Shown here: positions 54,233 through 58,734 of the stretch, piece after piece
Layout of the letters: the number at the start of each line of letters is the position of its first letter
How positions within the stretch are numbered: position 1 is the first letter of the stretch
Assembly (NCBI GenBank): GCA_030123765.1
Contig: JASJXX010000001.1
Coordinates: 21,210 to 85,209 of the forward strand
Direction: 5' to 3'
Length of the DNA stretch: 64,000 nt
Origin: Actinomycetota bacterium
GTDB taxonomy: Bacteria; Actinomycetota; Acidimicrobiia; Spongiisociales; UBA5794
The notes under the pieces: generated by a model
Told to the model about the DNA's origin: nothing
Seen by the model: only the letters and a program-made list of their open reading frames with translations
Database searches by the model: none
Translations under genes and position numbers: made by a program

Positions 54233-55075
54233 GTGGGCCGACGTTTCGTCATCCGCGATGCCTCGCGAGTTGGAACCGACATCGTCCGGCTCGTCGTTGA
54301 GGCGCCACGAGTCGCTCGGCACGCCCGGCCGGGGCAGTTCGTGATCGTCCGTTCCGGTGAACACGGTGAGCGTATCCCCCTCACTAGTCGCAGCACCGAC
54401 GCTGCCGAGGGAACGATCACCCTCATCGTCCAGGCAGCTCGCAGCACACCACGAACAAGATCAATCAGAAGGGCGCAGGAGACCACTTCAGGGATGTGCT
54501 GGGACCGCTCGGCACTCCATCCCACATCGAACGATTCGGTACCTGCGTCCTCGTCGCCGGAGGAATCGGAGCGGCGATCGTTCTCCCCGTAGCCGAGGCT
54601 CTCGCGGAGGCGGGGTACGTTGCCATCGGCATCGTGGGGGTCCGCGACAGTGAACACCTGGTCCTCCTCGACGAGATGCGTGCCGCGTGCAACGAGGTGA
54701 TCGTGACGACGGACGACGGGTCTGAGGGCCTGCACGGCCTTGTGACCGACGCCCTCGTAACTCTCATGGCGGAGACCGCCATCGACTATGTGTTTACCGC
54801 AGGACCGATCCCAATGATGCAAGCTGTCGCCGAGCGGACGCGTCAAGACGCCATCGCCACCGTTGCGAGCCTGAACCCTCTCATGGTCGACGGCACCGGC
54901 ATGTGCGGCGGGTGCAGAGTGACCATCAACGGTGCATCGAAGTTCGCTTGTATCGACGGCCCCGAAATCGATGCACACGATGTCAACTTCGCGTTGCTCG
55001 GTACGCGAACCGGGGCGTACCTCTCCTTTGAATCCTGCAAGCTCGATGAGGCGGTCGAGGCTCTGGATGCCTGAA
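54233..55075 (+). pseudogene. Frameshifted nfnA/sudB/pyrK-like ferredoxin-NADP reductase small subunit
   Basis: The N-terminal part (RFVIRD...PGQFVIVR...ERIPLT...GTITLIVQ) is in one frame. The remainder (GDHFRDVLGPLGTPSHI...GGIGAAIV...GTGMCGGCRV 2Fe-2S motif) is in a different frame from about 54440. Confidence 0.6.
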
Positions 55076-55557
55076 CGCACGAAGCGCGAGCGCATGAAGA
55101 TGGAGCGCACCGCCGTTCCGAGACAGAGATGCCAGCTCGGAGCGAGGAGATCGCCCACGCCCTGGAAGAGGGCGTCCACATCCGCTTCCTCATCGCCCCA
55201 ACATCATTCAACGGCGCAGAGGGGTGGCTCTCGAGTGTCACGATCCAGAAGATGCAGCTCGGAGAGCCCGACGCCGACGGGCGAGCGCGGCCGGATCCGA
55301 TCCAGGGCGCGTTCGAGACAATCGACGCAGACGTAGTCGTTGTCGCCATCGGCAACGCGCCGAATCCTCTCCTCACGAAGTCCACGCCAGCCCTCACAAC
55401 GAGCCCGTGGGGCACGATCGAGATCAACGAGGAGACAGGCCTCACATCGATCCCCGGCGTGTTCGCCGGGGGCGACATCACAACCGGCAGCGCAACCGAG
55501 GTCCTTGCTCTCGCTGCGGGACGCCGCGCCGCGGCTGCTATCGATGACTATCTCTGA
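55067..55557 (+). pseudogene. Remnant of a GltD/NfnB/SudA-like large subunit with an internal deletion
   Basis: A GltD-type N-terminus MPERTKRERMKME... at 55067 overlaps the upstream stop (ATGCCTGA). It then jumps, in a different frame, to the C-terminal ~145 residues (...RRSETEMPARSEEIAHALEEGV...MQLGEPDADGRARP...GVFAGGD...IDDYL). Confidence 0.55.
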
Positions 55558-55590: not shown

Positions 55591-56085
55591 TCACATCACG
55601 AACGGGATTATCCGCCACGCGACCTCAGAGCGGTACGCCCGATAGCCCTCGACGCGCACGACGAGCATCTCTTCCTCCCTCTCCGTCTTCGCCATGAAGA
55701 AAACGAGAAACGTCGCGGATACCAGCAGCACCGCTGGATTGGCGTAGGCGAGCCCGACCCCGAGGGTGAAGATGACGACGCCCGAGTACATGGGGTGACG
55801 CACATGACGGTACGGACCAGAGTCGATGAGCTGCGCGTTCTCGACGGGCCGCGGAAGCGGAGACACCACCCCTCCATGCGCGACCAGTGCCCAGAGCGCA
55901 ACACCCGCACCACCGACACCGATCACGACACCCACCATCCGGGCGAAGATGAGGCCGGGAACTTCGTTCAATGTGTCGCCAAAGACCACGGCGAAGACGA
56001 AGAGGGCGAAGATCACACCCTGGACAACAACCCACCCGATCTCCCGCTCCATATATGAGTCGATACGACTCATATTTTCTGGCAC
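55591..56085 (-). CDS. Isoprenylcysteine carboxyl methyltransferase (ICMT/PEMT)-family membrane methyltransferase
   Basis: ...LIDSGPYRHVRHPMYSGVV...EEEMLV... The true start is probably Met12 (56052), because the first 11 codons are encoded by the HAIR palindrome. Confidence 0.7.
   Translation of the reverse strand: MPENMSRIDSYMEREIGWVVVQGVIFALFVFAVVFGDTLNEVPGLIFARMVGVVIGVGGAGVALWALVAHGGVVSPLPRPVENAQLIDSGPYRHVRHPMYSGVVIFTLGVGLAYANPAVLLVSATFLVFFMAKTEREEEMLVVRVEGYRAYRSEVAWRIIPFVM
56053..56075. promoter_or_regulatory. HspR-associated inverted repeat (HAIR) upstream of clpB
   Basis: ATATGAGTCGATACGACTCATAT, a perfect 10-bp-arm palindrome with the TGAGT-N7-ACTCA core, about 70 bp upstream of the clpB start. 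Confidence 0.6.
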
Positions 56086-56142
56086 GGGCTACGCTTTCCT
56101 GTGGGCATAGGATGTAGTATCCCACGAGGACGCGTGAAACTC

Positions 56143-58734
56143 ATGAATATCAATATATTCACCGAACGGAGCAAGCAAGCCGTGCTCCACGCACGCGACA
56201 CCGCTGCTGAACGCCGTCACCAGTATGTGCACCCCGAGCATCTCCTTGAGAGCCTGCTCGCCCAATCCGACGGCATCATCTACCCGATCCTGGCGAAGCT
56301 GGGTGTGCACGTCACCGACGTTCAACGGCCGAACGAAGCTGCGCTCGACGCGATGCCGACCATGTACGGCGGGAACGAGGTCGCATTCGCCCAGGATGCA
56401 CTCGATCTCCTCAGCACCGCCGAACTCGAGATGAAGGCGTTGCACGACACCTACGTATCCATCGAGCACGTCCTCATCGCGCTCGCGAACTCCCCCTCGT
56501 CAACAGGTGACACCTTACGCGAGGCTGGCGTCACAAAGGAGAGCATTCTCACAGCCCTCACGGAGGTACGCGGCTCCCAACGCGTCACCAGCCAGAACCC
56601 GGAGGACACCTTCGCCCCGCTCGAGCAGTTCGGCCGCGACCTCACCCAGGACGCTCGAAACGGCAAGCTCGACCCGGTCATCGGGCGTGACGACGAGATT
56701 CGCCGTGTCATACAAGTGCTCTCACGCCGGAAGAAGAACAACCCCGTGCTGATAGGCGAGCCAGGTACGGGAAAGACAGCGATAGCCGAAGGCCTCGCGC
56801 AGCGCATCGCCGACGGCGACGTACCCGAGAGCCTGAAAAACTGCAGATTGATCTCACTCGACATCGGGGCGATGGTTGCAGGCGCCAAGTTCCGCGGCGA
56901 GTTCGAGGAGCGCCTCAAGGCCGTGCTCAGCGAGATCAAGGCGTCGGAGGGGCGCATCATCACTTTCATCGACGAGATGCACACCATCGTCGGTGCCGGC
57001 GCCGCTGAGGGATCGATGGATGCCTCGAACATGTTGAAGCCGATGCTCGCCCGCGGTGAGCTGCGCATGATCGGAGCCACCACGCTCGACGAATTCCGCA
57101 AATACATAGAGAAGGATCCCGCCCTCGAACGGCGTTTCCAGCCCGTGCTCGTCGAACCGCCAACCGTCGATGAGACGATCGGAATCCTTCGAGGCCTCAA
57201 GGAGCGCTACGAGATACACCACGGGGTACGCATCACCGACGCTGCCCTGATCGGCGCCGCGGTCCTCTCCGACCGGTACGTGACGGGTCGTCACCTTCCG
57301 GACAAAGCGATCGACCTCATCGACGAATCGGCATCGAAGCTCAGGATCGAGATCGACTCGATGCCTGATGAGATCGATGAACTCGAGCGGCGCCGCCGCC
57401 AGTTCGAGATCGAGCGCCAGGCACTCTCCAAGGAGGAGGACAAGACGTCGCAGGAGAGACTCGCCGCAATTGAGAAGGAACTCGCCGACCTCGGCGAAGA
57501 GCTCGACGCGCTCACGGCACACTGGCAGCTTGAGAAAGATCTGATCGGCAAGATCCGCTCGACCAAGGAACAGATCGAGGAGGGTCGGACGGAAGCCGAA
57601 CGTGCTGAACGCGAGGGCGACCTTGAGAAGGCAGCCGAGCTCCGCTACAGCACGCTCCCCACCCTTCAACAGCAACTTACGACAGGGCAGGTAAAGCTCG
57701 ATGAGCTCCAGGTGAATCTAAAGATGCTGAAGGAAGAAGTGGACGAGGAGGACGTTGCCGAGGTCGTGAGCCGCTGGACCGGCATTCCGGTCTCCAAGCT
57801 GATGGAGGGAGAGATGCACAAGCTCGTGCGCCTCGAAGAGCACCTTCACAAGCGTGTCATAGGACAGGACGATGCCGTGTCTGCAATATCGAACGCCATT
57901 CGGCGGTCGCGGGCGGGGCTCTCCGATCCCAACCGCCCGATCGGTTCCTTCCTCTTCCTCGGACCGACCGGCGTTGGCAAGACCGAGCTAGCGAGAGCGC
58001 TCGCTGAGTTCCTCTTCGACGACGAACGCGCGATGGTTCGCCTCGACATGTCTGAGTACATGGAGAAGCACTCGGTGAGCCGCCTGATCGGAGCACCGCC
58101 CGGGTACGTCGGCTACGACGAGGGTGGACAACTCACGGAGGCCGTGCGTCGCAGACCGTACTCGATCGTCCTGCTCGACGAGGTCGAGAAGGCGCACCCG
58201 GAGGTGTTCAACGTGCTGCTTCAGTTACTCGACGACGGACGATTGACCGACGGGCAGGGCCGCACCGTCGACTTCACGAACACCGTTCTCGTGATGACGT
58301 CGAACCTCGGGTCAGAGCTGATCACCGCTGACTCTCCGGAAGATGTGATCGAAGCGAGGGTGTTGGAGGCAGTCAAGGAACACTTCAGGCCTGAGTTCCT
58401 GAACCGAGTGGATGACACAATCGTGTTCCACCGCCTCTCGAAGGATGACCTGCGCCAGATCGTCGCGATCCGATTCGCTGAACTGCAGCGTCGGCTCGCC
58501 GACCGCAAGGTCGACGTTGAACTCACCGAGAACGCGATCGACTGGCTCACCGACCATGGCTACGACCCGGTGTACGGCGCTCGACCACTGAAGCGCCTCC
58601 TCCAATCTGCCGTGGCTGACCCCCTTGCGATGAGGATTCTCAGCGGCGACCTCCCGGAGAACTCGAAGGTCACCATCGACACCTCCGAACACGGCCTCGC
58701 TTTTCTCTCTCCCTCTCGCGGGAGCAACGGCTGA
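56143..58734 (+). CDS. clpB: ATP-dependent chaperone ClpB
   Basis: Two AAA+ modules ([18 protein letters not shown]), a coiled-coil middle domain and a Clp N-domain. Confidence 0.95.

Follow-up and report, generated by a model that had tools for sequence, protein, structure and literature searches.

A putative HspR operator at clpB that probably overlaps the translated 5' end of a divergent membrane methyltransferase gene in Acidimicrobiia

In a 64-kb window (the whole 64,000-nucleotide stretch of DNA analyzed, from contig JASJXX010000001.1 of an Actinomycetota bacterium of the class Acidimicrobiia), the chaperone gene clpB and the gene of a small membrane methyltransferase are divergently oriented, and a perfect palindrome stands where the methyltransferase open reading frame (ORF) begins. 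This arrangement raises the question of whether the palindrome is an HspR-associated inverted repeat (HAIR), the operator of the heat-shock repressor HspR, and whether it lies in front of the methyltransferase gene or within it. HspR control of clpB in Actinobacteria is itself already known and textbook matter: for Streptomyces and Mycobacterium it is established that HspR, aided by its co-repressor DnaK, represses the dnaK operon, clpB and acr2 (PMC8223512), and HAIR/HspR control in Actinobacteria goes back to Bucca 1995/1997 and Grandvalet 1999, as cited in passages of PMC8223512 and PMC6102357. Our analysis points with reasonable probability to an HspR operator that is part of a compact divergent clpB/methyltransferase control region and is embedded in translated codons 4-11 of the methyltransferase gene. 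The novelty is an operator that, as the comparisons below suggest, is embedded in and dictates the translated N-terminus of a divergent gene, and is conserved in an unstudied actinobacterial class.

Direct reading and a motif scan confirmed the original prediction of a palindrome with an exact TGAGT-N7-ACTCA core at 56053-56075. The element, ATATGAGTCGATACGACTCATAT, is a 23-bp perfect palindrome with the arms ATATGAGTCG-ATA-CGACTCATAT, each 10 nt long and 100% complementary, around a 3-nt loop. Its core was the sole match in the window (GC content 62.7%), even with one mismatch allowed; the chance expectation for the exact core was 0.09 per window, and at least one match occurred in 9 of 100 shuffles. 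The exact core was found ten times in 1.66 Mb of fetched DNA, each time directly upstream of a clpB gene. Compared with the full HAIR consensus CTTGAGT-N7-ACTCAAG, taken as quoted in PMC6102357, the window site matched 10 of 14 bases; all 10 core bases agreed, and the outer CT/AG positions read TA/TA. A scan with the full 14-base consensus, allowing up to three mismatches, gave no match in the window. The palindrome precedes the clpB ATG by 68-90 bp and thus falls in the control region of an established member of the HspR regulon, the regulon genes considered being the dnaK operon, clpB, lon and acr2. An imperfect overlapping palindrome, TGAAACTCATGA/TCATGAATATCA (window 56135-56152), runs across the clpB start codon and includes an ACTCA half-site; its sequence is not kept in locus L081, and it is probably due to chance.

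A profile scan of metagenome contigs with the methyltransferase alignment revealed at least six close orthologues, and ten divergent methyltransferase/clpB loci were compared (the window, L081, L082, L084, L161, L163, L164, L166, L169 and L170). The site was present in all ten and always occupied the same place with respect to the start of the methyltransferase gene. Eight carried the exact core, and a single mismatch was seen in L082 (CTAAGT arm) and L169 (TTTAGT arm). At L164 the orthologous site, CTTGAGT-CGAGATG-ACTCAAG, matched the published HAIR consensus at 14 of 14 positions, and L084 and L082 each contained one perfect 7-nt HAIR arm. Alignment of eight control regions revealed three conserved islands, namely TGAGTC-N5-GACT[C/T]A, TT[T/A]T[C/T]TGGCA[T/C] and GTAG[T/C]AT, and the divergent pairing was kept in proteins down to 53% identity. 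Few of the clpB relatives listed at 65% identity or less had a HAIR-like site.

Other clpB upstream regions carried related elements. Altered-arm palindromes, N7-spaced (N5 in L029), were present upstream of clpB in other actinobacteria (L002 3903-3921; L047 5962-5986; L049 5950-5972; L053 5937-5959; L029 5251-5269); they include TTGACA-N7-TGTCAA, CTAAGT-N7-ACTTAG, CTGAGT-N7-ACTTAG and CTGAGCG-N5-CGCTCAG and may be lineage-specific HAIR variants. At L164 (9960-10000), everted half-sites GACTCA-N10-TGAGT lie between the methyltransferase start and the TAGCAT box; this pair, not seen in the window, may represent a second, weaker HspR contact.

The repressor itself was sought next to the methyltransferase gene. 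A dnaK-grpE-dnaJ-MerR operon was located 2-7 kb from it on the same contig in L161, L164, L169 and L170, and about 4.6 kb from it in L165 (this contig begins 24 nt before the methyltransferase gene, and clpB adjacency is not visible there). Scored against the NCBIfam HspR equivalog NF047375 (cutoff 105 bits), the MerR proteins of L161, L164 and L165 reached 119, 125 and 116 bits, respectively; those of L169 and L170, which also follow dnaJ, were plainly homologous to them. We infer the presence of the repressor in the window organism from these relatives. At the dnaK promoters of L164, L165, L169 and L170, the string AATTGA-N9/10-GACTCA[A/G]G stands directly before a TATACT/TAGTAT box, and a second GACTCAAG-like half-site follows about 12-16 nt after the -10 box. 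In all four, the right half GACTCAAG is perfect or near-perfect and a degenerate left half, TTGATA, overlaps the -35 element; the 10-base core was not matched there with up to one mismatch. Since the half-site occurs at both the clpB and the dnaK promoters of the relatives, two classical regulon members share a recognition half-site. Over the dnaK upstream regions (L164 20112-20252, L165 8918-9100, L169 16357-16558, L170 19703-19909) the shared string extends to AATTGA-N9/10-GACTCA[A/G]G-TTA[T/G]A[C/T]T, and the TTGATA left half doubles as a -35-like element, with a -35/-10 spacer of only about 15 nt.

These features resemble the Streptomyces and Mycobacterium HAIR systems in the inverted repeat with its CTTGAGT-N7-ACTCAAG core, in clpB as the target, in the position of hspR after dnaJ in the dnaK operon of the relatives and in the HAIR-like sites at the dnaK promoter. 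They differ from them in that the operator here would lie inside the translated 5' end of a divergent gene and shape its peptide, and in the outer positions of the window site (TA/TA instead of CT/AG). With conservation at ten loci, the 14/14 site of L164, hspR in four relatives and HAIR-like dnaK promoters, the palindrome is very probably an HspR operator serving clpB, as had been proposed. In Solirubrobacterales and Acidimicrobiales metagenome-assembled genomes (MAGs; L032, L039, L042, L051 and L060), the gene that ends just ahead of clpB, about 400 nt upstream, is an hspR-like MerR gene, which suggests that clpB was appended there to a dnaK-grpE-dnaJ-hspR operon with no operator of its own.

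Could the palindrome instead be the operator of a different regulator, such as ClgR, HrcA (CIRCE), CtsR or another protein? The window contains no hspR gene, and HspR binding is predicted here from the sequence. CIRCE has the form TTAGCACTC-N9-GAGTGCTAA, ClgR sites are of the CGC-N5-GCG type and CtsR binds direct repeats; the palindrome bears no likeness to these literature consensus forms, and relatives with an hspR gene have its half-site GACTCAAG again at their dnaK promoters. We regard another regulator as highly improbable.

We next considered whether selection at this site acts on the DNA or on the encoded peptide. On the minus strand, the methyltransferase ORF opens with the codons GTG CCA GAA AAT ATG AGT CGT ATC GAC TCA TAT ATG, translated as MPENMSRIDSYM; homologues share an N-terminal peptide, MP[E/D]N[M/L]S-xx-DS, in which the two arms are translated as ATG/TTG AGT and GAC TCA and the spacer supplies the two variable residues. 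On its face, this would allow the peptide to be a functional methyltransferase motif and the palindrome an incidental by-product of its codons, and the peptide is indeed conserved in about 88 of 120 homologues. The codons argue otherwise. In all eight scored loci, the first serine was AGT (1-12% of serine codons in the same genes), the second serine was TCA (background 7-17%) and Pro2 was CCA (background 8-20%), and the background GC content at third codon positions of the scored genes was 0.69-0.87. The product of the two serine-codon frequencies over eight loci was 10^-20.6, assuming an independence that is only partly true. Synonymous sites would be expected to be largely randomized at 53-73% protein identity; rare AGT and TCA codons fixed in 8/8 loci thus indicate that the constraint acts on the DNA. 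The two spacer codons vary freely, and the DNA fits the published operator consensus, perfectly so in L164.

Orthologues located away from clpB gave the same answer. All five (L083, L085, L086, L167 and L168) lacked both the HAIR and the peptide and bore unrelated acidic tails, for example MRQSESGVGWV (L167) and MTEETTRSEPEDSRGVGWV. The motif was absent from the non-adjacent P0023, 69% identical to the window protein, and present in L164 at 53%; overall, orthologues of 50-69% identity away from clpB were without it. Its presence in 10/10 adjacent and 0/5 non-adjacent loci means that the motif goes with clpB adjacency and not with phylogeny or the function of the enzyme, and a purely proteinaceous motif is scarcely credible. 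The adjacent A/T-rich codons 2-4 (CCA GAA AAT) may reflect translation initiation, an operator flank or an UP-like element for clpB. At L167 (1030-1206), the methyltransferase gene abuts NfeD, elsewhere located beyond clpB; here clpB, the HAIR and the MPEN codons seem to have been lost by excision or moved elsewhere, and the enzyme seems to have gained a short new N-terminus (MRQSES...).

Whether the palindrome is translated depends on where the methyltransferase starts. The original prediction read the palindrome as codons 1-11 of the ORF and placed the true start at Met12. The overlap with the ORF stands, but the palindrome spans two bases of codon 4 and codons 5-11, and codons 1-3 (56077-56085) fall outside it. 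The proposed start was not supported. All ten loci had a start codon in frame, four codons ahead of the palindrome; it is GTG in the window and ATG in the other nine. The Met12 position is occupied by T, I, S or others in many homologues, and the Met5 position by Leu (CTA/TTG) or Phe in 4/10 loci and by Leu in most homologues. Even where the gene had been called from Met12 or later (P0013/L161, P0021/L163 and P0040/L166), the upstream start and the HAIR were in frame with no stop between them. The motif was in frame in about 88 of 120 homologues, and the linkers between it and the GWVxxQ helix came in 13 different lengths (5-19 aa). An untranslated segment would put about two thirds of such length variants out of frame, and these would show up as short calls; no more than about 8 of the 120 homologues could be out of frame at all, and all three of those tested were in frame, which argues that the segment is translated. 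Hydrophilic acidic N-terminal tails also occur in the orthologues not adjacent to clpB, so a translated tail is normal for this methyltransferase family.

The alternative, in which the HspR operator lies wholly upstream, the methyltransferase starts at Met12 (56052) and the 11 upstream codons are an annotation artefact, draws on the ATG present at Met12 in the window, where the upstream start is only a GTG and a good Shine-Dalgarno sequence precedes neither. Met12-type starts were also called in the close relatives P0012, P0013, P0017 and P0021, and a tail of 5-8 residues before GWV would resemble some orthologues (L167, MRQSESGVGWV). Besides the lack of conservation of Met12, the upstream start that short-call loci carry in frame and the frame kept across the linker lengths, long-linker homologues without an internal Met would have to start at an unconserved GTG inside GVGWV. 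We consider a Met12 start distinctly unlikely and judge it likely that the operator lies inside translated methyltransferase sequence; for the window taken singly, initiation at Met5 or Met12 keeps some probability.

For the promoters of the two genes, candidate -10 boxes were taken from a TANNNT search, which gave two on the clpB strand. A TAG[T/C]AT box follows the right arm by 42-46 nt in 9/10 loci; in the window it lies 22 nt before the clpB ATG, with GAGGA between them, and would imply a clpB transcription start near 56127 and an operator centre near -63. A second box, TA[T/C][A/G]CT, stands exactly 17 nt after the right arm in the window, L081, L161, L163 and L166; its window form, TACGCT, would set GACTCA (56067-56072) at -35, a classical occlusion geometry. 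In L169, the locus without the TAG[T/C]AT box, TACAAT follows the right arm at a distance of 19 nt. Read from the minus strand, these two boxes become GATACT and TAGT[A/G]T, of which the latter stands 5 nt ahead of the methyltransferase ATG; GATACT could act as a methyltransferase -10, and the boxes suggest a leadered or a leaderless methyltransferase transcript.

Several other signals were considered and set aside. The string TGGCAC (56080-56085), considered as a sigma-54 signal, consists of the start codon and CCA seen on the opposite strand, and the downstream GC element is unconserved; Actinobacteria are not known to have sigma-54. No SigH-type GGAA-N-GTT promoter was seen by eye. An intrinsic terminator (hairpin plus TATTTTCT) was not flagged by the scan, its stem is weak in the relatives and no gene lies upstream whose transcription it could end. 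A HAIR-adjacent -10 (TATTTT, TATTAT) is weak, since L084 and L164 have AGTTTT there.

In the regulation that we propose, TGAGTC-N5-GACTCA would be bound at normal temperature by a dimer of HspR, for which DnaK probably serves as co-repressor, as it does in Streptomyces and Mycobacterium; on heat shock HspR would leave the operator and clpB would be derepressed. The operator would at the same time fix the codons ATG/TTG AGT and GAC TCA and with them the family-wide peptide MP[E/D]N[M/L]S-xx-DS. In each of the promoter arrangements considered, the operator begins 10 nt after the methyltransferase start codon. Every methyltransferase transcript must cross it, and bound HspR would probably hinder that gene too, as a roadblock or by promoter occlusion of the 57-nt intergenic region. 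Co-regulation of the methyltransferase with clpB by heat shock is plausible on this ground. HspR binding, the direction and size of its effect on either gene and the promoter positions are all predicted here from the arrangement of the site.

A more modest possibility is that the operator regulates clpB only, the overlap being passive and methyltransferase expression not meaningfully affected. The site travels with clpB and not with the methyltransferase, and small dimeric repressors can in general be weak roadblocks. The sole documented intragenic HspR site, in Helicobacter pylori speA, is without regulatory effect (PMC6102357). The H. pylori operators (Pgro, Phrc, Pcbp and speA) resemble the window site in that a HAIR-like repeat nucleates binding and that one of them is intragenic; the speA site, however, lies in the 3' part of its gene, with no detected regulatory role, whereas the window site falls at codons 4-11, is conserved across the clade and belongs to a bidirectional control region. 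H. pylori HspR acts as a repressor of Pgro and Phrc at positions -117 to -44 and -150 to -82, with footprints of about 70 bp centred on the HAIR (PMC6102357). By analogy, a footprint of this kind would reach the -35 region of the TAGTAT-box promoter and would cover the 57-nt intergenic region together with any methyltransferase promoter. With the operator 10 nt past the start codon, bound HspR would overlap an initiating or early-elongating polymerase, and the divergent pairing is retained down to 53% protein identity. An effect confined to clpB is therefore an unlikely outcome in our view, though one to be reckoned with. Operators within coding sequence are familiar as roadblocks or auxiliary sites, for example lacO2 in lacZ, the PurR site in purB and cre sites within ORFs. 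They share with the arrangement proposed here a position past the transcription start and inside translated DNA, and a double constraint on the DNA; they are not known to define a clade-wide N-terminal peptide or to be shared with a divergent chaperone gene.

A number of observations weigh against an HspR operator embedded in translated sequence. The outer HAIR positions are unmatched in the window (10/14), and no hspR, dnaK, grpE or dnaJ gene was found within its 64 kb. The sigma-70 consensus scan found no promoter; the most conserved -10-like box, TAGTAT, gives an operator centre of about -63, atypical for a repressor, and the better-placed box at +17 is limited to one subclade. The codon statistic presumes that the eight loci are independent. 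The window start itself is a GTG, preceded only by a weak purine-rich patch at some distance and by no good Shine-Dalgarno sequence, and Met5 and Met12 are both present. The frame-conservation argument leans partly on gene calls that favour long ORFs, a bias mitigated, although not removed, by checking three short-call loci and three fetched with tblastn. The non-regulatory speA site belongs with these points.

The palindrome might also act as an mRNA hairpin, a thermometer or translation brake, instead of or besides its role as a DNA operator. The window 5' region was predicted to fold at -28.4 kcal/mol (z = -4.8); the fold contains a 10-bp stem that starts 10 nt past the start codon. The hairpin was missing, however, from the predicted folds of L082 and L084, its arms are invariant and show no covariation, and the sequence equals a known protein-binding consensus. 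An Rfam scan matched no family to the palindrome, giving no sign of a structured RNA. We rate an RNA element as very unlikely. A weak Rfam match to Ms_IGR-8, a Mycobacterium small RNA (window 56168-56209, minus strand; 17.4 bits against a gathering threshold of 44, E = 0.26), lies antisense within the clpB 5' coding region and is almost certainly due to chance.

A bolder version of the HspR operator reading can be drawn as a long shot: the operator is overprinted by the methyltransferase frame, the N-terminus is the operator translated, and regulon membership, a frozen tail and a hairpin layer follow from this. If so, the membrane methyltransferase, through HspR bound 10 nt past its start codon, would truly belong to the heat-shock regulon throughout the clade; a DNA-binding protein, and not protein function, would have frozen the acidic tail of the enzyme in evolution; and lineages with a perfect palindrome, such as that of the window, would also gain an mRNA hairpin and with it a temperature-sensitive translational layer.

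Our literature search found no published work joining HspR and the class Acidimicrobiia, and the present comparison is the first comparative evidence we found for an HspR regulon in this uncultured class, with the variant TGAGTC-N5-GACTCA. It also offers a candidate case of a transcription-factor site that fixes amino acids and rare codons of a protein N-terminus across a clade. The case cautions that conserved N-terminal 'motifs' need not be protein features and that overlap with a palindrome is no ground for trimming ORFs. Finally, it puts forward a small membrane methyltransferase as a candidate for the heat-shock regulon, which hints at membrane or lipoprotein modification in the thermal response.

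The features of the locus are collected in Table 1.

Table 1. Observed and predicted features of the clpB/methyltransferase locus (window coordinates).
Feature	Coordinates	Strand	Basis
clpB, 863 aa; Clp_N, two AAA modules, ClpB_D2-small	56143..58734	+	Pfam, homologue alignment
Likely clpB ribosome-binding site GAGGA	56126..56130	+	Sequence reading
Candidate clpB -10 TAGTAT within conserved GTAGTATC	56115..56120	+	TAG[T/C]AT in 9/10 loci (predicted)
Candidate clpB -10 TACGCT (TANNNT)	56090..56095	+	17 nt after HAIR right arm (predicted)
Conserved A/T-rich block TTTCTGGCAC (clpB strand), methyltransferase codons 1-4 (GTG CCA GAA AAT)	56076..56085	.	Alignment, codon scoring
HAIR-type palindrome, putative HspR operator	56053..56075	.	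Conserved position in 10/10 clpB-adjacent loci
Core TGAGT-N7-ACTCA; clade form TGAGTC-N5-GACTCA in most loci	56056..56072	.	Invariant alignment columns
Met5 ATG inside left arm	56071..56073	-	Not a conserved start
Met12 ATG, start proposed earlier	56050..56052	-	Not conserved in homologues
PEMT/ICMT-superfamily membrane methyltransferase ORF, 164 aa, GTG start	55591..56085	-	Codons 4-11 coincide with palindrome

The assignment of clpB was clear, with the architecture Clp_N + AAA + AAA_lid_9 + AAA_2 + ClpB_D2-small and a start at ATG 56143, where MNINIFTE aligned with the N-termini of homologues. Among the matches listed, the window protein was 55-65% identical over its full length to ClpB of many phyla, and the closest ClpB among species representatives shared 65% identity.

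The methyltransferase scored above the cutoffs of PF04191 (46 bits, cutoff 25) and PF04140 (40.2 bits, cutoff 24) and showed weak similarity to structure 4a2n, a Methanosarcina isoprenylcysteine methyltransferase (ICMT; E = 2.3e-5); its likeness to 4a2n and to both families is in the C-terminal S-adenosylmethionine-binding region. In contrast to ICMT proper, it is only 164 aa long and lies far under the equivalog cutoff of NCBIfam NF040696 for true isoprenylcysteine methyltransferases (46.2 bits against 160), so 'ICMT' is a superfamily label only for the window gene. Its nearest homologues with a taxon label come from Acidimicrobiia MAGs, and the closest relative, P0001, is 99% identical and sits on a 2-kb contig.

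Beyond the methyltransferase gene, three overlapping or adjacent ORFs on the plus strand (window 54233-55557) resemble the remnants of a PyrK/SudB-like and GltD/SudA-like oxidoreductase pair. The first (54233-54592) had no Pfam match, the second, in another frame (54496-55074), matched NAD_binding_1 and DHODB_Fe-S_bind, and in the third (55129-55557) only the C-terminal third of Pyr_redox_2 was matched (profile positions 190-282 of 291). This pattern suggests a frameshift and truncation, or assembly errors, and the segment is the exact point where synteny with the relatives ends. In the relatives, the methyltransferase gene is followed downstream by PBP, NTP_transf_9, aminotransferase and E1_dh genes and then by hspR-dnaJ-grpE-dnaK.

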